Shown: positions 4,155-49,909 of the stretch, piece by piece
Position numbering within the stretch: position 1 is the first letter of the stretch
Layout: each line of letters starts with the position of its first letter
Assembly: GCA_016839785.1 (NCBI GenBank)
Contig: JAEOTQ010000166.1
Location: 1-49,909, forward strand
Source: Candidatus Hodarchaeota archaeon
Lineage (GTDB): Archaea; Asgardarchaeota; Heimdallarchaeia; Hodarchaeales; Hodarchaeaceae
Reading direction: 5' to 3'
Length of the DNA: 49,909 nucleotides
Notes under the pieces: model-generated
Databases searched by the model: none
Told to the model about the DNA's origin: nothing
Seen by the model: only the letters and a program-made list of their open reading frames with translations
Made by a program: the position numbers and the translations under genes

Positions 4155-5155
4155 TTATTTTGAATTGTTTGTTAACCGCTTTTCTCCTTGGATCTCTCGT
4201 ATTCGCGTAGCATCCTGTATTCTTTCAAGAGTTCCAAGATATTTGCCTTTCTTATCTCGTATGGCATGATATTGAAAGTATATGAATCTATTTTGATGGT
4301 TAATCCAAAATTCTTCTTCGTGTCGTTTGTTTGCTTTGAAATCTTCTAATATTTGATTCACATGACTAATACTCTTTGGAGGATGGCAGTGATAGACGTC
4401 ACGACCTAAATTAGCTAGTGTTCTTCGAAAAATTGGAGATTTTGTTGGAGAAAAATAGACTAATTTATCGTTGGCATCAATGAACGATAGTTGAAGGGGA
4501 ACATTTTCCATTATTTTTTCAAACAATCCCTGTGAAATACGCCCAGTAGAGAAATTAATTATCTGAGAGTCTTGATTTTCTTTGTATTTCATATTTGGAA
4601 ATGATGCTTGCGCCTTTTGATCTGGAACAATGATGCAATAACCAAAACCATCGCTTAAAGATGCAATACGGAGCCAATCGTCCTCTGATAATTTTTCAAG
4701 CGCGATGGGAAATATTTCCGTCTCTTCTTTTTTAATTATCCAGGGAATAGTATGTAAAATGGTTTTATTTTATTCTCAATGGTTTGGGGGAAAATTAAAT
4801 GTGCTGAAAGGATGTCTTCAATCTTCTCTAAGCGATCGCGAATATTATCTATATTTTTGCGTAATAGGGTCAGATTTTTATGCATTCCTTTCTCTTGCAA
4901 TAAAGGAAATAGCAATTCTTCTAGTCTTAAGTAATGTTTTCTTATGTCCAGTAAGAGGTTATATTTTATTCTCAATTCAAGTTTTAACGCTTCATCTTGA
5001 TCTTGCTTTATCTGATTCAAAATAAATGTAAATTGTTGAAGTAGAGCTTCAATTGCACGATTTTCTTACATAAATATGGTTACTGGATGACCAGAAGGAA
5101 GTTCGCTTTGTTTAGATGGGGCAAGCATACTAATGGTTCCCTTAACGTCTTTCAA
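4155..5155 (-). pseudogene. Disrupted DUF438-like hemerythrin + PAS_10 protein (one nonsense codon and one frameshift)
   Basis: Reads PSGHPVTIFM*ENRAIE (TAA at 5066-5068), continues in frame through HYLRLEELLFP, shifts frame near 4756-4759 into KKEETEIFPIALEKLSEDDW..GYC, then PAS_10 (FRRT...GRDVYHCHPPKS). Confidence 0.85.
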
Positions 5156-5386
5156 TATTAGTCAATCCTCTTATATCCCCCGATTCAATATTTAACGATT
5201 AAAAAGCAAAATTTCCTTAAGTTTACCCTTCTGAATAACGAATTTTCTCTATCCAGAAGTACTTAAACAGATTTCGATAAGTTAAACCTGAATTTCTTCT
5301 GTCTGTTACAACCGTGAGTTATTTTTATCCCTCATCTTATGTTCCCTATTCAATCTTAAAAGTTCCTTTGGGTTGGAAAGAAGCTA

Positions 5387-5905
5387 ATGATTCCATTTAG
5401 AGAGTATAGAAAAGAATGTTTGTTTAGGAATAACAAACTATGCTCTTATTGGGAACAATCTACAGAGTGTCATTTACTCTCATGTCCTTTTTATTCCACC
5501 AGTATGACTACAAGTGGAAAAAAATTGCTGGAAAAACGTAAACAAGATACGATTACTTTTTCCCCAACCGATTTAGATAATGCTGGAAAATCCGTACATG
5601 ATATCATTGGTATAACAAAAAGAGAGGAGGGAATCGAGCAACAAGAGGATCAGGAGAAACCTCGACAGTCAAGTGTAACTGAAAAAATGGTATCTCGGCT
5701 TACGTGTATAGCGTGTGGTGAACAAATTTTCGACGATAAGTTTACTACAATTCGTGATCCACATGGAGTTATAATTTATCTCCATTCAAAAGGTAAATGC
5801 GATGTTAGGCATGAGCATATTCCAATTGTACGTAAACGTTGGCTAAAGATGCACAATTACGGAAAAAAAATATCCAAAACGGAAAAAACAGAGGAATCAG
5901 GATAG
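5387..5905 (+). CDS. Hypothetical protein with two predicted Zn-binding modules
   Basis: N-terminal C-x7-C-x8-C-x4-C cluster; C-terminal CIAC-x22-H-x4-C. Confidence 0.65.
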   Translation: MIPFREYRKECLFRNNKLCSYWEQSTECHLLSCPFYSTSMTTSGKKLLEKRKQDTITFSPTDLDNAGKSVHDIIGITKREEGIEQQEDQEKPRQSSVTEKMVSRLTCIACGEQIFDDKFTTIRDPHGVIIYLHSKGKCDVRHEHIPIVRKRWLKMHNYGKKISKTEKTEESG

Positions 5906-5938
5906 TTTAATCAAATAATACTGATGTAGGGAAATATA

Positions 5939-6110
5939 ATGGCTAAAATTGTTATGCCAATTGCTGCAGAGGAATGGAAAAAGATATGGAAAAGAAATAG
6001 AATTCGTTCTATATCCGCGTGATGGTCATGAACTTTCTCGCAGTGCAGAACCCCGACATATTGTAGACCGAATCAGAAGAATCATTCAATGGATTGAGAA
6101 ATATTCATAA
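5939..6110 (+). pseudogene. Relic of an S9 (prolyl oligopeptidase/acylaminoacyl peptidase) gene
   Basis: Frame 5982-6110 reads RYGKEIEFVLYPRDGHELSRSAEPRHIVDRIRRIIQWIEKYS*, the catalytic-His C-terminal segment of S9C peptidases; no GxSxG region upstream. Confidence 0.75.
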
Positions 6111-6122
6111 TAAGAAGAAGGA

Positions 6123-7748
6123 ATGGTTAAAATGGCAGTAAAATTTTGGAGACGACCCACAGCAGGTAGATCTGCTGTACATGCAAAAAATGGTTTAGTT
6201 GCTTCTTCTCAACCATTAGCTTCATCTGCAGGAATTCAAATGCTTCAAACTGGCGGAAATGCAAGTGATGCGATAATTGCAATGGCCGCAGTACTAAATG
6301 TAGTTGAACCATTTTCCACAGGTATAGGAGGAGATGCATTCGCACTTCTTTATGTTCCTGGTGAGGACCTACCAATTGGAATTAATGGATCAGGATTCTC
6401 ACCGAATAAATTAACTTATGATTTCTTTGTTACAGAAAAACAATTTTCAGAGATCCCATTAACTGGAATCTTACCTATTACGGTTCCAGGAGCAGTAAGC
6501 ACTTGGGGTTTAATTCACAAGAAGTTTGGATCCTTACCTTGGAGTGAAGTGCTCCAACCTGCAATAAATTATGCTAAAAATGGGTTCCCTATAAGTCCAT
6601 TAATTGCTCAAGTTTGGAATGAATTAGTTCCTAAGCTCAAACTGCATGAAGGAGCTCGACAAACCTATTTGATTAATGAAGAACGAGCTCCACACTCAGG
6701 GGAATTGTTTAAACAAGAGGAATTGGGGAAAACCTTTCAAAATCTCGCAGACCATGGTTATGAAACTTTTTACACCGGTGATCTTGCGAATCAGACAATA
6801 GAGTTTTTACAAAAGGAGGGAAGCGTGATAGATATACTTGATCTAAATAATTTTTCTGCTGAATGGACAAATCCGATTTCTAAGGTAATTTATGACCATC
6901 AATTATGGGAACATGGACCAAATGGACAAGGACTTGTCACATTACAAATTTTGTCAATTGCTGAAGAGTTAGATATTGCACGTTATCCTCTAAACTCAGC
7001 TGAATATTTGCACGTTCTAATTGAAGCAAAAAAACTCGCTTTTTCGGATGCTTTTACCTATTTAGCAGATCCAAGAGCAATGAATGTGGATGTAGATGTC
7101 TTTCTAACTGATAAATATGCACAAACCAGAGCCAGTCAAATAAATCCTAGGAAAGCATTGAAAGAATTACCTTATACTTTAGATATGGGAGAAGATACAG
7201 TATATTTAACTGTAGTTGATAAAAATGGCTTTGCTATATCTTTCATTAATTCTCTATACTATGGATTCGGCTCAGGAGTAGGAGATCCAGTAACGGGAAT
7301 TGCGTTCCAAAATAGAGGAGCTGGATTCACACTCAAAAAAGGGCACCCTAATCAATATGAATCAGGAAAACGACCGTATCACACAATAATCCCAGCTATG
7401 ATAACTTCTCCCTCTACAAATCGTTTATTGCATTCTTTTGGTGTGATGGGAGGACATCATCAGCCAATAGGACAATCTCAAGTATTTCTTAACCTCGTAT
7501 TACACGGTATGGATCCTCAGGATGCCATAAATTCCCCTCGTTTTCATCACGAACAGAATTCCAATCTTGTTGCTTTTGAAGAACCTATTCCATTACAGGT
7601 TAAAACACAATTACGGGGATTGGGGCATAACGTGCGAGATTCAGTTGGGATGAACTTTGGAGGAGGTCAAATCATATCTATTTCTGAGAATGGATCTTAT
7701 ATCGGTGGGTCTGATCCTCGTAAGGATGGTCAAGCTCAAGGATACTAG
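6123..7748 (+). CDS. ggt: Gamma-glutamyltransferase family (Ntn hydrolase)
   Basis: GGNASDA, EPFSTGIGGD, TVPGA, autocleavage site D-TVYLTVVD, FGSG, KRPYHTIIP, DPRKDG. Confidence 0.94.
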   Translation: MVKMAVKFWRRPTAGRSAVHAKNGLVASSQPLASSAGIQMLQTGGNASDAIIAMAAVLNVVEPFSTGIGGDAFALLYVPGEDLPIGINGSGFSPNKLTYDFFVTEKQFSEIPLTGILPITVPGAVSTWGLIHKKFGSLPWSEVLQPAINYAKNGFPISPLIAQVWNELVPKLKLHEGARQTYLINEERAPHSGELFKQEELGKTFQNLADHGYETFYTGDLANQTIEFLQKEGSVIDILDLNNFSAEWTNPISKVIYDHQLWEHGPNGQGLVTLQILSIAEELDIARYPLNSAEYLHVLIEAKKLAFSDAFTYLADPRAMNVDVDVFLTDKYAQTRASQINPRKALKELPYTLDMGEDTVYLTVVDKNGFAISFINSLYYGFGSGVGDPVTGIAFQNRGAGFTLKKGHPNQYESGKRPYHTIIPAMITSPSTNRLLHSFGVMGGHHQPIGQSQVFLNLVLHGMDPQDAINSPRFHHEQNSNLVAFEEPIPLQVKTQLRGLGHNVRDSVGMNFGGGQIISISENGSYIGGSDPRKDGQAQGY

Positions 7749-7910: not shown

Positions 7911-9125
7911 ATGGATAGTGTTCAGATAAGGGATTTATTGCAAGAAGCAAAGTCTCATATGTACTCATGGACAACCAATGATTTAACTTCCAAATTAGCT
8001 AAAGAAGTTATGAGTATAGGTTTGGCGAAAATAATAAGTTTCTATCAGGAAAGTGGGAATGATCCAAACAATGTTTTAGTCGTTTTTGGACCAGACGGAA
8101 GTATTACGAGAAACAAATCACGATTTAATTCTGGAGTTGGTTATGGTTGTGCTGTAATCACAAAAGATTATCTTTTTCCTAGTCTTCTTCATCCTAATGG
8201 TTGTGGCTTTGGACTGTATCATGTATCCAATATGCCACCTATTGATCAGTTGATGGATAGATTGCACATCTTAAAAAAAGACGGTGTTCCAGTAGGAAGA
8301 CAAACAGGAAAATGGGATGTATGGAAATCAAATCATTTCATTGATCTACTCCGATTGGAGTCTTTAACGAATAGATATTCTCACTATGAAAAATATCTAC
8401 CATCTGGAGACTATGTACTAATCCACTCTTCACAACAAACGGAAAAAGAAAAATTGAGCTACTGGAAGGAGGAGGAATTTGAACGGATTAAAACCCCGTT
8501 TGGTGTAATAGAGGGTTTACCTGAAGATTCAGGCAATGAATATTTAAACTATTTTGAATCAGTAGAGAATTATTCCAAAAACAAGCGTGAATCGATTGCC
8601 GAAGCTCTTTTTGGAGAAGAAAATATTACTTGTATTTCTAATCCTACTCATCAGGGATATTATAAGGAGAACAACTTATTTACAATGAGATTAGGACTGT
8701 ATAATTCTCTCGACACAACTGGTGATACTCCTCTTCCCCTATTTCCAATAGGTTTCAATGCTTATTCATTCATCTACTTATATGAAGGAGAACCCAATAT
8801 TGATACTAAATATTGGACAGGAGTTCAATTACAACAATCTGAAGAGAAGGATCACACTTCAATCCTTAAGGGAGTAAATATTCTACCTCATGGTGGAGGA
8901 TACAAACTTCATTTTCCATTTTATGACGTTAAGACTCTGATACACAATAACGAGTATTATTTCGAGCTATCTCAGGCTCCAATGCAAAGTCGCATGATTA
9001 TTCAGAATGTTGAGTCATTAGAATATGGTTATCGTGGTCCCTCTGAAGTTCTTCCTGTGGTTGAAAGACTGGAATTAGGAAGAAAAGTTGCTCAGTTTGT
9101 CCCTGTTCAAGTAATCAAATACTAA
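7911..9125 (+). CDS. Divergent RtcB-fold protein (RNA ligase/guanylyltransferase paralog)
   Basis: Colinear RtcB motifs: GPD, NGCG, SNHFID, LIHSS, PTHQ, PHGGG, YGYR, and C-terminal GRKVAQFVPVQVIKY. Confidence 0.8.
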   Translation: MDSVQIRDLLQEAKSHMYSWTTNDLTSKLAKEVMSIGLAKIISFYQESGNDPNNVLVVFGPDGSITRNKSRFNSGVGYGCAVITKDYLFPSLLHPNGCGFGLYHVSNMPPIDQLMDRLHILKKDGVPVGRQTGKWDVWKSNHFIDLLRLESLTNRYSHYEKYLPSGDYVLIHSSQQTEKEKLSYWKEEEFERIKTPFGVIEGLPEDSGNEYLNYFESVENYSKNKRESIAEALFGEENITCISNPTHQGYYKENNLFTMRLGLYNSLDTTGDTPLPLFPIGFNAYSFIYLYEGEPNIDTKYWTGVQLQQSEEKDHTSILKGVNILPHGGGYKLHFPFYDVKTLIHNNEYYFELSQAPMQSRMIIQNVESLEYGYRGPSEVLPVVERLELGRKVAQFVPVQVIKY

Positions 9126-9273: not shown

Positions 9274-10185
9274 ATGAAAAATCGTCAACCTAATACAGAT
9301 TTTGAGGATCCAGAAATGGAACAAGTAGATGATTTTTCATTTCCAGGTCGAAAATCGTTATTAGAAAGTTTGAAATTACAGTTAGGGGTGATTGGAGACG
9401 TATGGATTCATCATGCCTACTCTGTGCCGTCCAAAGACCCTTTATTAATCGATGAAAAATATGAAATTGATTATCAAGATAAAATTATTGTTCCTTCAAT
9501 TCTTCATACTCTAATAGATAAAGTTGGTGGGAAACGAACAACAAGTCTCTCTGCTATCTGTGGGATGAAGAGCCCAGAGTTAATTTTCCTTCATGATCCC
9601 GCCACGATGAACCTCTCAGTCGTATTCCAGGAAAAACTATGGGTGACTGAGGTTTTACTAAAACAGGCCAATTTTTTGTATCCTACTCCGTCAACTCGTG
9701 AACATGCATTAACAAATTTAGAAAAGACGAAAGTCGAAGTAATCCATTCTGATATTTCTATAGAGTTAAATGGACATCGAACAGAGAGAGGAATTGAACA
9801 GGATGAAGTTTTAATTCCCCTTGACTCAAATTATCGTCCAGTTCTTGGAGGAAAAGATCCTGCGTCAAAGTTTAAACTTCCATTCCCAAGGTTATTAGAT
9901 GCTGGAGAACTTGTACTTATGATATCTGATGCTATCTCTTCTTCTGCAAAAATGTATCTTGGGACTGTAAATGTTCGCTTGAATGAAGATCAAGTTGCGT
10001 TGGAATACCCTCTCGAGGCACATATCGCTGGACTTAAGCTTTATAAACGCTATATTGACGTTATTGAGGTATACTCTCCTTCTCAATTAGAAAAGACGGA
10101 GTTACAAAAAATTAACTTTCGTATTTACAGAACAGAAATGTCAAGACATCTCCGACTGTTAATTAATTTACTCCACATTCGATGA
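9274..10185 (+). CDS. Hypothetical protein
   Basis: 303 aa ATG-initiated ORF with a globular composition; no family recognised. Confidence 0.75.
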   Translation: MKNRQPNTDFEDPEMEQVDDFSFPGRKSLLESLKLQLGVIGDVWIHHAYSVPSKDPLLIDEKYEIDYQDKIIVPSILHTLIDKVGGKRTTSLSAICGMKSPELIFLHDPATMNLSVVFQEKLWVTEVLLKQANFLYPTPSTREHALTNLEKTKVEVIHSDISIELNGHRTERGIEQDEVLIPLDSNYRPVLGGKDPASKFKLPFPRLLDAGELVLMISDAISSSAKMYLGTVNVRLNEDQVALEYPLEAHIAGLKLYKRYIDVIEVYSPSQLEKTELQKINFRIYRTEMSRHLRLLINLLHIR

Positions 10186-10201: not shown

Positions 10202-10702
10202 TTAGAGTTCTTTGTCATGGTTTGCAATCATTTCTTTAGCTTCTTCTATCCAAATACGAGTTAGTTGTAATTTAGAGAGGTCTTTCTGTTTCTGTATCAG
10301 ACTTTCATGACGAGACTCATACTCGTTCCTACTGATCCTTTGTAAGATAAAATCCCGTTCAATTTGCTCTATCTCTGCACTAACAATTCCATCCATTGTT
10401 TGAAAGTAAATAATAGCAGCTGATGCGATCGTGCTCAATAAGTCTAAACCTGGTGTAGAAATATAATAGACATAATGAGGAGAGGGAAAAGGTTCGACTC
10501 TTCGTTCAGCAATATATTGGGAGCACATTAGCTTCAAGTGTTTTTCGACAGCTGGGCGGGAAATGTTTAAGAGAGAGGCAAGTTTTTGAGGATTTTTAGG
10601 TTCTTGAGTAATTAAAGTGATTATCTTCTGTCTTGTCGGATCTGAAAGAATTTTCAGAATCTCTGCAGTTCGTTTTTCTAAATTATCAGACAGAAAATTC
10701 AT
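10202..10702 (-). CDS. ArsR-family wHTH regulator with C-terminal SHOCT-like helical motif
   Basis: LKILSDPTRQKII...LASLLNISRPAVEKHLKLM; C-terminal EIEQIERDFILQRISRNEYESRHESL. Confidence 0.85.
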   Translation of the reverse strand: MNFLSDNLEKRTAEILKILSDPTRQKIITLITQEPKNPQKLASLLNISRPAVEKHLKLMCSQYIAERRVEPFPSPHYVYYISTPGLDLLSTIASAAIIYFQTMDGIVSAEIEQIERDFILQRISRNEYESRHESLIQKQKDLSKLQLTRIWIEEAKEMIANHDKEL

Positions 10703-10966: not shown

Positions 10967-11821
10967 ATGTTGAGAACTATGTCGAATAAAGAAATAGAAG
11001 ACCTTAAAACATTAATTAAAGCATTAGAAATACGTTTACAAGCTGATGAGATCACAGAGGCTGAGTATAAAGAATTAAAAGAGAAATACAATACAAAACT
11101 TCAAGAGGAAATTGGAGCGCTTAAGGAACACAGTTTTCTAAGGAATTTATCGTATATATCCATATCAGGTTCTGGGAAAGTAACTGACTCTTATGTAACA
11201 ATCTCTGGATCAGGCAGAATTGAAGGGTGGAGAGATGGTACAATCACGATTTCTGGGTCAGGTAAGGTTAGTGATGAAGAAATAAAGATTTCTGGATCAG
11301 GAACTCTCCCAGGAGATCTTAAAACTGATTCATTATCAGTTTCTGGTTCATTAAAGGCTGAAGGTCCAATCGAAGCTGGAAAATTCTTATCATCAGGTTC
11401 ATTCAAAGTTAATGGGGAGTTAACTATTCACGAGCGCTTTGATTCATCGGGTTCAGGTAAAATTGATGGTTCTCTCTTAGCTGAAAGTGCTTCTGTCGTG
11501 TCTAGTGGATCTCTTAAGGTTGAGGGCGATGTTATCTGTGACAAAGCAGAGTTTTCAGGTGCTTATAAAATCTCTGGATCGGTGGAATGTAAGAATGAGT
11601 TTACTTCAGAGATAAACGGGAGATGCAAAATTGAAAATGATTTAATATGTGGTGGAGATATATTTATAGAGCAAGACTCTAGAAAAGGATTTTTGACAGT
11701 TAATCACATAAAATCTGATGGAGAAATTTATCTTGAGGGTGTTGAAGCCAAAACTGTGCGTGGAAAAAAAGTTAAGGTAGGACCAGAGTGTAATATTGGT
11801 TCCATTGAAGAAACGGGTTAG
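10967..11821 (+). CDS. Polymer-forming cytoskeletal (bactofilin-like, YhbE/YhbF type) protein with N-terminal SHOCT-like domain
   Basis: About nine xxxSGSxKV/I beta-helix repeats; C-terminus EIYLEGVEAKTVRGKKVKVGPECNIGSIE as in Firmicutes YhbE/F; N-terminal LEIRLQADEITEAEYKELKEKY. Confidence 0.82.
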   Translation: MLRTMSNKEIEDLKTLIKALEIRLQADEITEAEYKELKEKYNTKLQEEIGALKEHSFLRNLSYISISGSGKVTDSYVTISGSGRIEGWRDGTITISGSGKVSDEEIKISGSGTLPGDLKTDSLSVSGSLKAEGPIEAGKFLSSGSFKVNGELTIHERFDSSGSGKIDGSLLAESASVVSSGSLKVEGDVICDKAEFSGAYKISGSVECKNEFTSEINGRCKIENDLICGGDIFIEQDSRKGFLTVNHIKSDGEIYLEGVEAKTVRGKKVKVGPECNIGSIEETG

Positions 11822-11907: not shown

Positions 11908-12672
11908 CTGATAGTTTGGTGTATAACAGGGGGAGGAGATTTTTTTGAGGATAATTATCATGTACTTTTAGATATGCTTTCAAAAAAAATTCCAATTTTA
12001 GCTGTTTTTTCTGATGCAGGTGCATTTGTCTACAATAGATATGGTTTTTTCTGGAATTTGAGTAGATTAGATTCAGAAATGGATAATTTTAGAGTTTTAT
12101 TTGAGAGCGATTTCGTGCTGAATCATAATATTGAACAACTATTGAGAAAGAAAGAAATCCCGTACTCAACATTGCCTAGAGATCCTTGCTTTGCCAAAAG
12201 TATCTGGTTAGCAAATCAGAACTTAAAATGCATTATCGCAAGTCCATTAACTTCCAATTCTGTTGCGAAACTTACAACGGGGATAAATGATACCTTGGTA
12301 CTCAATCTCTTGTCTGCAGGAAAAAAAGCTGGTCAAATGATTGGAATTTTCCCAACCGATAGAGGGTTCGATTCCATTACCTCCAAGCTACCTGTTCGAA
12401 AAACCAAACCTGTGGATTCAAAAGATTTGGATCCTAAAGTTTGTTCCTATGGAGCTCTAGACTTAGAAAGCTCTTCAAATGCAGAATATCTGTCAGAGTT
12501 TTGTGTAGGGTGTAGAAAATGCGTAGAGAAATATCCAGAGATTTTTTCCGTCGATGAAGAAATTGAGATTCATATAAGATCAATTGATCAAGTAAATACA
12601 CAGAAGTTAAGTGATGAATTCCGTGTTTTTCATTCCCCAGAAGAAATATCAAGTTTTATTTCAGCATTGTAA
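11908..12672 (+). CDS. HFCD/AfpA-like flavoprotein with ferredoxin insert (DmrX-like dihydromethanopterin reductase homolog); true start uncertain
   Basis: In-frame LIVWCITGGG motif upstream of ATG11974; SPLTSNSVAKLTTGINDTLV; CSYGA and CVGCRKC. Confidence 0.75.
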   Translation: MIVWCITGGGDFFEDNYHVLLDMLSKKIPILAVFSDAGAFVYNRYGFFWNLSRLDSEMDNFRVLFESDFVLNHNIEQLLRKKEIPYSTLPRDPCFAKSIWLANQNLKCIIASPLTSNSVAKLTTGINDTLVLNLLSAGKKAGQMIGIFPTDRGFDSITSKLPVRKTKPVDSKDLDPKVCSYGALDLESSSNAEYLSEFCVGCRKCVEKYPEIFSVDEEIEIHIRSIDQVNTQKLSDEFRVFHSPEEISSFISAL

Positions 12673-12676
12673 CTGA

Positions 12677-13228
12677 TTAAGTATTAAGTCGTTTGTATTC
12701 TTCAATATATTCTCCAATGATAAGACCTAATTGTCCAAAAGCTTCTGTTACATTTAATCCTGATTTAGCAGATGTTTTTAAATATTTAATATTGAAGGGA
12801 ATATCGTGAGTCTCTGATTGCGATTTTTTAATGAAATGATCAATTTGTTCTTGATCTATGGCCCCAGGAAGGTCGCTTTTATTGCCTAATATGATGTAAG
12901 GGATTTCTCGACCAACATTTGTAAAGAGTTCCGTTTTCCAATTCTCTAAACTGTAAAGCGAATCTAATCGGGTTTGATCAAAAACTAATATTGCTCCATG
13001 TGAGCCTTTGTAATACAGTGCTCTAACAGCAGAAAATCGTTGTTGTCCTGCTAAGTCCCAGATTTGAAATTTATATTGAATATCTCTGATAGTAAGATTT
13101 TGAACAGCGAAATCAGCTCCTATGGTTAAAATATAGCCACTTTGGAAACCTTTTCCCAAAAAACGTTCGCGTAAAGATGTCTTTCCTACTCCTCCGTCTC
13201 CTAACAGGCATATTTTGTATAATGGCAC
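12677..13228 (-). CDS. Rab-like small GTPase
   Basis: G1 GDGGVGKT, G2 TIGADF, G3 WDLAGQ, G4 NKSD, G5 SAK; no C-terminal Cys. Confidence 0.93.
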   Translation of the reverse strand: MPLYKICLLGDGGVGKTSLRERFLGKGFQSGYILTIGADFAVQNLTIRDIQYKFQIWDLAGQQRFSAVRALYYKGSHGAILVFDQTRLDSLYSLENWKTELFTNVGREIPYIILGNKSDLPGAIDQEQIDHFIKKSQSETHDIPFNIKYLKTSAKSGLNVTEAFGQLGLIIGEYIEEYKRLNT

Positions 13229-49337: not shown

Positions 49338-49909
49338 TTACCCCTTGATATTTCCAATAGGAATTAATTGAGCGATTTTTCTAGATAAATCTGCACCATG
49401 GATAGAGTCAACTACATCATTGATATTTTTATACGCGAACCCCGCTTCTTCTGCTAGCCCAGCCATAGATGCTGCACGAACATAAATCCCTTTTGCTTCC
49501 ATTTGACTACGTAAGACGTTTCCTCTAATCTTTTTCTTCGCTTTAGATCGAGACATAGTTCTTCCAGAACCATGAGCAGTAGATCCGAAAGATTTTTTCA
49601 TAGCAGCTTCAGTTCCAGCAAGAAGATAAGAGCCAGTTTCCATACTTCCTCCTAAGATCACGGGTTGGCCAACAGATTGGTAAATACCAGGAATGTCCTT
49701 TGAATTAGGTCCAAACGATCTAGTAGCACCTTTTCGATGTACAATGACTTCTCGGGTTTTACCTTCAATCGTGTATTCCTCTTGTTTTGCAATATTGTGT
49801 GCAACATCATAGACAAGATTCATTTCCATCTCTTCGGCAGTTCTACCAAAGACTCTTTCAAACCCCTTTCTTACATGTGACATAATCACTTGGCGATTTG
49901 CAAATCCGA
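49338..49909 (-). CDS. rtcB: Canonical RNA-splicing ligase RtcB, 3' portion (truncated by the window edge)
   Basis: ANRQ, YDVAHNIAK, HRKGATR, GGSMETGS, STAHGSGR, EEAGFAYK, PIGNIKG. Confidence 0.96.
   Translation of the reverse strand, partial: GFANRQVIMSHVRKGFERVFGRTAEEMEMNLVYDVAHNIAKQEEYTIEGKTREVIVHRKGATRSFGPNSKDIPGIYQSVGQPVILGGSMETGSYLLAGTEAAMKKSFGSTAHGSGRTMSRSKAKKKIRGNVLRSQMEAKGIYVRAASMAGLAEEAGFAYKNINDVVDSIHGADLSRKIAQLIPIGNIKG

Follow-up and report, generated by a model that had tools for sequence, protein, structure and literature searches.

In the RtcB of Pyrococcus horikoshii (PhoRtcB), as set out in PMC8051266, one manganese ion (Mn1) is bound by Cys98, His234 and His329 and a second (Mn2) by Asp95, Cys98 and His203, guanosine monophosphate (GMP) is carried on His404, and the strand that bears the 5'-OH is held by Asn202, Arg238, Arg190 and Gln194. 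In human RTCB, according to PMC8668186, Glu230, Ser409 and Lys504 read the guanine, and Asn226 and His428 the phosphate. Judging by the libraries we searched, RtcB has so far stood alone, one family whose fold and chemistry are unique to it. The subject of this work is one gene in a 49,909-nucleotide stretch of DNA (hereafter the window; G+C about 35%), contig JAEOTQ010000166.1 of the Candidatus Hodarchaeota archaeon assembly GCA_016839785.1. The gene encodes a protein of 404 amino acids (the window protein) that resembles RtcB and belongs to a family of its own. Our reading, to which we give a probability of about 0.55, is that it would be a functional enzyme from a sister family of RtcB that has no name yet, with a non-canonical substrate, most likely a non-polynucleotide phosphoester.

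7911..9125, plus strand: the RtcB-like gene, 404 amino acids and a stop codon (open reading frame, AlphaFold2 model, Foldseek, hhalign)

Homology to RtcB and extent of the family

Three alignments underlie the comparisons: A1, with 51 closer relatives of the window protein; A2, with 13 canonical RtcBs from related genomes; and A3, with 63 diverse representatives of the family, which are 20-33% identical to the window protein with the exception of one row at 62%. The AlphaFold2 model of the window protein, built on A1, has a predicted local distance difference test score (pLDDT) of 93.5 and a predicted template modelling score of 0.92. Searched against the PDB with Foldseek, this model returned 16 matches at E ≤ 1e-3, the best at 1.5e-10 with a probability of 1.00. 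The 12 matches listed were all RtcB, from archaea, bacteria, fish and human (E 1.5e-10 to 2.5e-8, template modelling (TM) scores 0.45-0.53, identity 11-14%), and the other four were further chains of the same entries; the next match after RtcB had an E-value of 0.03 and a probability of 0.03.

Profile comparisons agree with the fold. All five matches of the A1 profile to PDB sequences at E ≤ 10 were RtcB (best 0.0047), and each of the five was matched in two colinear stretches. The hhalign comparison of A3 with A2 gave a probability of 93.8% and an E-value of 1.7e-7 over 357 colinear columns that span both proteins, while the same comparison with A1 reached a probability of only 16%. In NCBIfam there was a single weak match, to the RtcB family model NF007153 (E 8.4e-4, residues 77-233, 18.4 bits against a cut-off of 407). 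In the ESM Atlas the nearest neighbours of the window protein were clusters without a name; of the 30 matches listed, 24 belonged to the set labelled PF01139, and in the cluster shown this label was carried by 13% of the members. Simpler searches barely see the relationship: the window protein had no Pfam match at E ≤ 1, a PF01139 search of the whole genome did not report the gene, and phmmer of the window protein against PDB sequences gave no match. Only four of the 63 relatives reached PF01139 at E ≤ 1 (best E 0.0071), and the two scores seen, 16.1 and 13.3 bits, were under the gathering cut-off of 27 bits. Because Foldseek finds RtcB and nothing else (E 1.5e-10), because hhalign aligns the two profiles at E 1.7e-7, and because the aligned catalytic residues are conserved across the 63 relatives, the resemblance goes beyond chance, and we regard it as practically certain that the window protein is homologous to RtcB and has the same fold.

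A preliminary description of the window, made from its letters alone, had listed PD, GCG, NHF, IHS and other motifs in the protein and had aligned it colinearly with a canonical RtcB in the same window. All of the motifs are where it placed them in the open reading frame. The canonical RtcB is also there, as a fragment comprising the C-terminal 189 amino acids and cut by the end of the contig; because the N-terminal part is found on another contig (C169), the N-terminal motif comparison could not have used it. Four pairings, VAHN/PTHQ, HRKGATR/MRLGLYN, STAHGSGR/ILPHGGGY and the C-terminal block, were reproduced in both hhalign runs. A fifth, GGSMETGSYLLAG/FNAYSFIYLYEG, was present in the A3 run and took another register in the A1 run, and BLASTP of the window protein against the fragment aligned the last 37 residues only (30% identity, E 2e-4).

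The same description had proposed an RtcB subfamily. RtcB-like proteins are instead a separate and widespread sister family of RtcB. A word-indexed search found 79 relatives, none with a precomputed Pfam domain and all, where a name was given, called 'hypothetical protein'. When 1.84 billion representatives were searched exhaustively, 158 clusters reached E ≤ 1e-3, and scanning one genome for each prokaryotic species gave 331 stretches that encode a member. The phmmer E-values from the window protein to family members run from 1e-173 to 1e-20. Orthologs at 55-84% identity occur in metagenome-assembled genomes (MAGs) of Heimdallarchaeota and Hodarchaeota. Archaeal homologs at about 30% identity come from Bathyarchaeota, Altiarchaeota, Hadarchaeota, Hydrothermarchaeales, Methanocellales, Methanofastidiosia and Methanohalarchaeum, and bacterial homologs from Anaerolineae and other Chloroflexota, Armatimonadota, Actinomycetota, Pirellulales, Atribacterota and Halanaerobiales. 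For the family there was no model, name or solved structure in the PDB, in Pfam (2025), in NCBIfam release 20 or among the Pfam 38.1 labels of the ESM Atlas, and no family of this kind beside RtcB appeared in them. A literature search over titles and the starts of abstracts found no paper on the family, with the likeliest earlier description (Burroughs and Aravind 2016, NAR 44:8525) lying outside that coverage. The absence of a PF01139 match and the sub-threshold scores of the relatives also place the window protein outside any characterised RtcB clade; membership of such a clade was one of three results that the preliminary description had named as contrary to its proposal. The other two, a predicted structure without the RtcB fold and Cys/His residues that vary among the homologs, were not observed either.

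The Hodarchaeales, which count among the known archaea closest to eukaryotes, have two to three paralogues of the family. Among 31 related genomes, canonical RtcB was found in 29 and the RtcB-like family in 25. The family was present in all 18 other genomes of the genus that were searched, mostly in two or three copies, and was not found in any of the five searched genomes of one sister genus. The source genome has two members, on contigs C135 and C162, besides its canonical RtcB. On an unrooted maximum-likelihood tree of 76 members (LG+G4), the window clade is a separate lineage with a long stem, the C162 paralogue falls among members from Bathyarchaeota and bacteria, and a third Heimdallarchaeial clade stands apart; the tree is a quick one on which long branches meet, and no deeper conclusion was drawn from it.

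Near the C162 copy (L140: 6333-7574, minus strand) there is a convergent gene for a 618-residue membrane protein (4474-6330, plus strand), at a distance of 3 base pairs (bp). The membrane protein has a weak match to PMT_2 (dolichyl-phosphate-mannose transferase-like), and its relatives in the same BLAST cluster are also found close to this paralogue in two further genomes of the genus (L151, L152).

The active site and a possible mechanism

The residues of the window protein that correspond to the RtcB active site are as follows.

8091..8096, plus strand: P61-D62, which pairs with the RtcB 'PD' (PhoRtcB Asp65) in one of the two profile alignments
8193..8207, plus strand: P95-N96-G97-C98-G99, with C98 the counterpart of the metal-bridging Cys98 in both hhalign runs
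8331..8339, plus strand: N141-H142-F143, counterpart of RtcB Asn202-His203-Phe204 (phosphate contact, Mn2 ligand) in both hhalign runs
8424..8426, plus strand: H172, counterpart of the Mn1 ligand His234 in both hhalign runs
8649..8654, plus strand: H247-Q248, counterpart of the Mn1 ligand His329 and of Asn330 in both hhalign runs
8886..8903, plus strand: P326-H327-G-G-G-Y331, with H327 the counterpart of the guanylylated His404 in both hhalign runs
9030..9035, plus strand: Y374-R375, which pairs with the RtcB C-terminal 'YK' (BLASTP and both hhalign runs)
9117..9119, plus strand: K403, counterpart of the C-terminal Lys that contacts guanine in RtcB (human Lys504; PMC8668186), paired in BLASTP and both hhalign runs

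The catalytic centre is kept. N141, H142, H172, H247 and H327 are present in 63 of the 63 relatives in A3, F143 in 62 and C98 in 59, so that the counterparts of the three Mn1 ligands (C98, H172 and H247) are retained in the alignment in 59, 63 and 63 relatives and that of the nucleophile, which RtcB carries in H-G-x-G and the window protein in PHGGGY, is invariant. The preliminary description had named the metal ligands and His404 and had judged them all to be retained, and the counts in the wider family agree. At the Mn2 site the counterparts H142 and C98 are kept, and Asn96, at -2 from the Cys, is conserved in 55 of 63. Toward the C-terminus, the Y374 position is aromatic in 60 of 63, R375 is Arg in 61 of 63 and K403 is Lys or Arg in 49 of 63. 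The counterpart of PhoRtcB Asp65 is D62 in one hhalign run and N68 in the other, registers that disagree; D62 is Asp in 57 and N68 is Asn in 52 of the 63 relatives. Along its roughly 400 residues the family shows the motif series PD..TRN..R, GYG, PNxCG, NHF, HxSxxE.K, R226, THQG, PHGGGY, YRG and a C-terminal K/R. The window protein holds this series in order with two local departures, T177 in place of the Glu of HxSxxE and Y78-G79-C80 at the place of GYG.

What surrounds the centre is changed. The four replacements that had been listed earlier were all found: DxxC is PNGC, HN is HQ, the Lys of HRKGA is absent, and the Arg of HGxGR is absent, its place being taken by Tyr331 (Tyr in 49 of 63 relatives). 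The place of Arg238 is occupied by Gln176, in a column that varies in the family with Ser, Pro and Asp the commonest residues, and in the columns of Arg190 and Gln194 neither an Arg nor a Gln is conserved (A3 hhalign, 63 relatives). A segment of about 70 residues that precedes the NHF motif in RtcB is mostly deleted in the family. Basic residues that have no RtcB counterpart are conserved instead (R71, K179, R226 and R375, the last a family-specific arginine). The window protein is acidic, with an isoelectric point (pI) of 5.6 and a net charge of -11, and the median pI of the family is 6.2-6.5 as opposed to 9.05 for the canonical RtcB of the same class. The alignments show no loss of the contacts that hold GTP by its phosphate, by stacking and by the C-terminal Lys. 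Where RtcB has the Glu that reads guanine, 47 of the 51 close relatives in A1 have Asp (D145). Since this place and K403, the counterparts of guanine contacts, vary in the wider family, the nucleotide may not be GTP.

The missing Asp95, the loss of several RtcB arginines and the failure of Pfam to recognise the window protein might be taken as signs of a catalytically dead RtcB relic with a structural or regulatory role. We consider this very improbable, because four His and one Asn of the aligned active site are invariant in 63 of 63 relatives at 20-33% identity (one at 62%), and such invariance is unexpected in a dead enzyme. Judged by its conserved residues, the window protein is very probably competent for catalysis. 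The conserved core is also the argument for a chemistry of the RtcB type, and it is probable that the function is something other than canonical RNA ligation; catalysis, nucleotide, metal and substrate class are what we infer for the family.

The mechanism that we propose would operate in a trimmed RtcB fold, shorter by some 80 residues. H327 would attack GTP, or another nucleoside triphosphate, held by two ions of the Mn2+ type, the first bound by C98, H172 and H247 and the second by C98, H142 and perhaps N96. The product of the attack would be an enzyme carrying a nucleoside monophosphate (NMP) covalently on His. The NMP would then be passed to a phosphate (or a hydroxyl) of the substrate, and a second hydroxyl would displace it to give a phosphodiester. 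A pair of tRNA exons or of broken RNA ends, such as canonical RtcB joins, seems an unlikely substrate because the arginines that contact RNA are lost, a large surface segment is deleted and the protein is acidic. The substrate would most likely be a phosphorylated small molecule or another non-polynucleotide phosphoester; taken by itself, the assignment to a small molecule or other non-polynucleotide falls a little short of even odds.

Gene context and alternative substrates

The context of the gene was examined in the source genome and its genus and, separately, in distant relatives. The genes of the window that matter here are the following.

6123..7748, plus strand: gamma-glutamyltranspeptidase gene (PF01019, E 4.6e-142), the upstream neighbour conserved within the genus
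9274..10185, plus strand: orphan protein of 303 amino acids, which adjoins the RtcB-like gene in 16 related loci
10202..10702, minus strand: convergent regulator of the ArsR/HTH_20 type, a neighbour conserved within the genus
49338..49907, minus strand: canonical RtcB, C-terminal 189 amino acids, cut by the contig end

The order gamma-glutamyltranspeptidase, RtcB-like gene, 303-residue orphan and ArsR-type regulator is conserved in the genus, which is synteny among close kin. A gap of 162 bp with a TATA-like box lies between the gamma-glutamyltranspeptidase gene and the RtcB-like gene, and a second intergenic gap of 148 bp also has one. Because the two gaps carry these boxes, separate promoters are suggested, and going by the sequence the RtcB-like gene is probably transcribed separately from the gamma-glutamyltranspeptidase gene. 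The orphan is always beside the RtcB-like gene in the window clade; its 52 homologs are all of this lineage, and it has many invariant residues (for example W44, H46, H47, D82, K83, D184 and D219). It had no Pfam or NCBIfam match. Its AlphaFold2 model is of moderate quality (pLDDT 77.8) and found no PDB fold at E ≤ 1e-3, the top matches (sliding clamps and hot-dog folds) having probabilities of 0.12 or less. A complex prediction for the orphan and the RtcB-like protein, run without controls, scored 0.00 and is evidence neither for nor against an interaction. As for the canonical RtcB, its remainder, corresponding to the first 284 profile positions, lies at the end of contig C169 (C169:2515-3975), and the single archease match of the genome is directly upstream of it there and not beside the RtcB-like gene.

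Outside the window clade we surveyed 71 family genes in 71 loci; the context data cover 78 of the 331 encoding stretches. The preliminary description had suggested a neighbourhood survey of the homologs; in the survey the gene just downstream was often a phosphoesterase. A downstream gene on the same strand within 200 bp follows 42 of the 71 family genes, many at 0-30 bp. The Pfam tally of these 42 genes includes HD phosphohydrolases (10), AP_endonuc_2 TIM barrels (9), GDPD (4), ATP-grasp proteins of the sugar-transfer type (3) and a SerB-type HAD (1). The HD partners are found in six phyla and match, weakly, the uridylyl-removing HD region of GlnD (E 1e-7). An ATP-grasp BLAST cluster is directly downstream of the family gene in six loci, and the ATP-grasp genes are followed by deacylases of the AstE/AspA type. 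In the third (sister) Heimdallarchaeial clade, the gene is beside GDPD and a calcineurin-like phosphoesterase of 514-534 amino acids; the latter directly flanks the family gene in two of the four loci of that clade, and there is a 4-bp overlap with GDPD in two loci. Upstream genes showed no recurrent family except the calcineurin-like phosphoesterase (2 among 24), and 150 further genes within two positions added four calcineurin-like phosphoesterases, six AstE and two archease genes.

Some neighbours were set aside. The GCD14 methyltransferase, TBP and PolB were rejected as functional links, as they belong to the synteny of an Altiarchaeota lineage and are divergent or distant from the gene. 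The SerB beside one member scores above its equivalog cut-off and may be a housekeeping neighbour by chance.

A gene fusion adds to this picture. In the 743-residue protein P0146, the family domain, which keeps PD, PNGCG, NHF, IHS, SHQ and PHGSGY, is preceded by an N-terminal phosphotransferase domain of the APH/choline-kinase type (E 3.2e-20); its cluster has a second member, of 748 residues, from a different source. A search with A3 found no other longer or fused forms at E ≤ 1e-5, which is weak evidence. In the mechanism that we propose, the fused kinase would phosphorylate a hydroxyl compound, whose phosphate would be activated with NMP and joined to a second alcohol, and the phosphoesterase that in most lineages would act in the same pathway may trim, reverse or recycle the product. 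A pair of RNA ends is an unlikely substrate also because the genome has a normal RtcB with archease and because the partners (GDPD, HD, the APH-type kinase fusion) are of a small-molecule type. The preliminary description had left the choice between a nucleic-acid end, a protein and a small molecule; context and charge favour a non-polynucleotide among these.

In one Actinobacteria MAG, a run of genes on the same strand (L088, 5477-9457) consists of FolB dihydroneopterin aldolase, the RtcB-like gene, ATP-grasp and an AstE-like deacylase. A homolog of this ATP-grasp has weak matches of the alpha-L-glutamate-ligase-like kind. The run, a single instance, suggests pterin or cofactor-tail chemistry.

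The recurrence of phosphodiesterase-capable folds among the partners (HD, GDPD, AP_endonuc_2/CbiR-like and calcineurin-like), the weak GlnD-like match of the HD partners and the retention of the nucleophile His and metal site where the strand-joining residues are lost would also fit a nucleotidyl 'writer'. Such an enzyme would stop once the NMP on His had been moved to a hydroxyl group on a protein or a metabolite, without joining anything further, and the phosphodiesterase beside it would be the 'eraser'. This is improbable in our judgement: known transfer of NMP by enzymes of the RtcB type is to phosphate and not to hydroxyl, the kinase fusion suits a phosphate acceptor better, and no candidate target protein was conserved nearby among the neighbours scanned.

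Several observations weigh against a small-molecule ligase as we propose it. The TM-scores to RtcB are only moderate, the Mn2 ligand Asp95 is replaced, with Pro at -3 from the Cys, and the place of D145 varies in the wider family (Asn 13, Asp 12 and Glu 12 times). The neighbours in the window clade are the orphan, the gamma-glutamyltranspeptidase and ArsR, a phosphoesterase partner being absent there, so that the context within this clade is uninformative, and because these are not phosphoesterases the context argument is borrowed from relatives that are about 30% identical. Among the 150 representatives listed, the kinase fusion is seen in one cluster. The AP_endonuc_2 partners have similar scores, all of them far below cut-off, for sugar epimerases, deoxyribonuclease IV and the cobamide phosphodiesterase CbiR.

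Two further points bear on a reading in which the family would act on nucleic-acid ends, as a specialised RNA or DNA 3'-phosphate ligase or a capping enzyme that works with an end-healing phosphoesterase in a repair or conflict module. The HD, endonuclease-IV-like TIM barrel, calcineurin-like and HAD folds of the partners are also known to heal such ends, and archease adjoins the family gene in two of the 71 loci, both from one Bathyarchaeota lineage and convergent.

L127, 7292-7762, minus strand: archease gene in a Bathyarchaeota MAG, convergent to the RtcB-like gene
L132, 4186-4629, minus strand: archease gene in a second, closely related Bathyarchaeota MAG, convergent to the RtcB-like gene

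The catalytic core of RtcB is kept whole, and a patchy distribution over archaea and bacteria is what one would expect of an accessory gene for repair or defence. Parallels would be the capping of DNA 3'-phosphate by E. coli RtcB and of 5'-phosphate ends by M. xanthus RtcB3. PMC10630183 records paralogues of RtcB whose capping activities on DNA or RNA are altered. We nonetheless hold a nucleic-acid end enzyme to be unlikely, if less so than a writer, since the counterparts of Arg238, Arg190, Gln194 and the HGxGR Arg are lost, the family protein is acidic where the canonical RtcB of the same lineage is basic, the GDPD partners and the APH-type kinase fusion point to small molecules, and no RtcA, PrfH, Ro or other RNA-repair partner was found among the neighbours scanned.

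Three other observations in the window concern neither the RtcB-like gene nor its partners. Positions 12677-13228 (minus strand) encode a small GTPase of the Ras/Roc family (PF00071, E 1.6e-40), typical of Asgard archaea, to which the named homologs of the window's proteins, from Hodarchaeales/Heimdallarchaeota MAGs, also assign the organism; positions 10967-11821 (plus strand) encode a repeat protein that resembles bactofilin (PF04519, E 1.2e-8) and contains an SGSG-rich repeat region; and positions 11974-12672 (plus strand) encode a protein with an N-terminal flavoprotein part (PF02441) and a weak, single 4Fe-4S ferredoxin-like motif at the C-terminus. In two related genomes, at L025 (G025:C1:1558351-1561179) and L026 (G021:C38:129362-132214), the canonical RtcB lies in open frames of 993 and 1015 amino acids, and Pfam matches it in two parts, profile positions 1-50 and 44/49-426, which looks like an intein insertion near the N-terminus.

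Comparison with known systems

Canonical RtcB (PF01139; PDB entries 1uc2/4dwq/4dwr for P. horikoshii PH1602, 2epg for T. thermophilus and 7p3b/8odo for human RTCB), which with GTP and Mn seals RNA ends bearing a 3'-phosphate or 2',3'-cyclic phosphate to 5'-OH ends, is the sole PDB match of the window protein, has the same fold and is colinear with the family profile from end to end. The family keeps the counterparts of Cys98, His203, His234, His329, His404, Asn202 and Phe204, together with those of the C-terminal aromatic residue and the C-terminal Lys. The window protein differs from canonical RtcB in being only 11-14% identical and about 80 residues shorter, in having the segment before NHF largely deleted, in lacking Asp95, Arg238, Arg190/Gln194 and the HGxGR Arg, and in being acidic and not basic. 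The family also falls under the Pfam threshold and has different gene partners; the archease partnership typical of canonical archaeal RtcB is not seen next to the window gene. The short bacterial proteins of the RtcB family (NF007153/PRK09588, 379 amino acids) are similar in their compact size, and theirs is the only curated model that touches the window protein. The PrfH-coupled RtcB2 is a ribosomal-RNA ligase, as described in PMC9223846 and PMC13166195. No prfH gene was near any family member scanned.

A sister family in which the catalytic centre is intact, and for which no characterised member was found, is a direct and cheap target for enzymology. If its substrate is a small molecule, ligation to a phosphodiester driven by GTP would extend from nucleic-acid repair into metabolism, and the family could fill orphan steps in the synthesis of cofactors, lipids or solutes in uncultured anaerobes, including Asgard archaea. 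We put forward, tentatively and with less conviction than the substrate class alone, that this second branch of the RtcB fold may use the same two-metal His-NMP chemistry to activate small-molecule phosphomonoesters and link them with an alcohol, all within one protein; candidates are lipid head groups, cofactor tails and phosphorylated solutes. Were this true, the phosphomonoester would come from the fused kinase, the product would be trimmed or recycled by the linked phosphodiesterases, and a single enzyme would do work that otherwise needs two unrelated ones, a nucleotidyltransferase and a transferase.

Activation with GMP followed by formation of a phosphodiester is carried out by two enzymes in known pathways, CofC and CofD for F420 and CobY/CobU and CobS for the nucleotide loop of cobamides. 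The net chemistry of these pathways is that of RtcB: a phosphomonoester and GTP give R-pp-G, from which a hydroxyl then displaces GMP. No observation made here links the family to F420 or cobamides beyond the weak, sub-threshold CbiR-like scores of some TIM-barrel partners. The two pathways differ from the window protein in that they use unrelated folds and two proteins instead of one.

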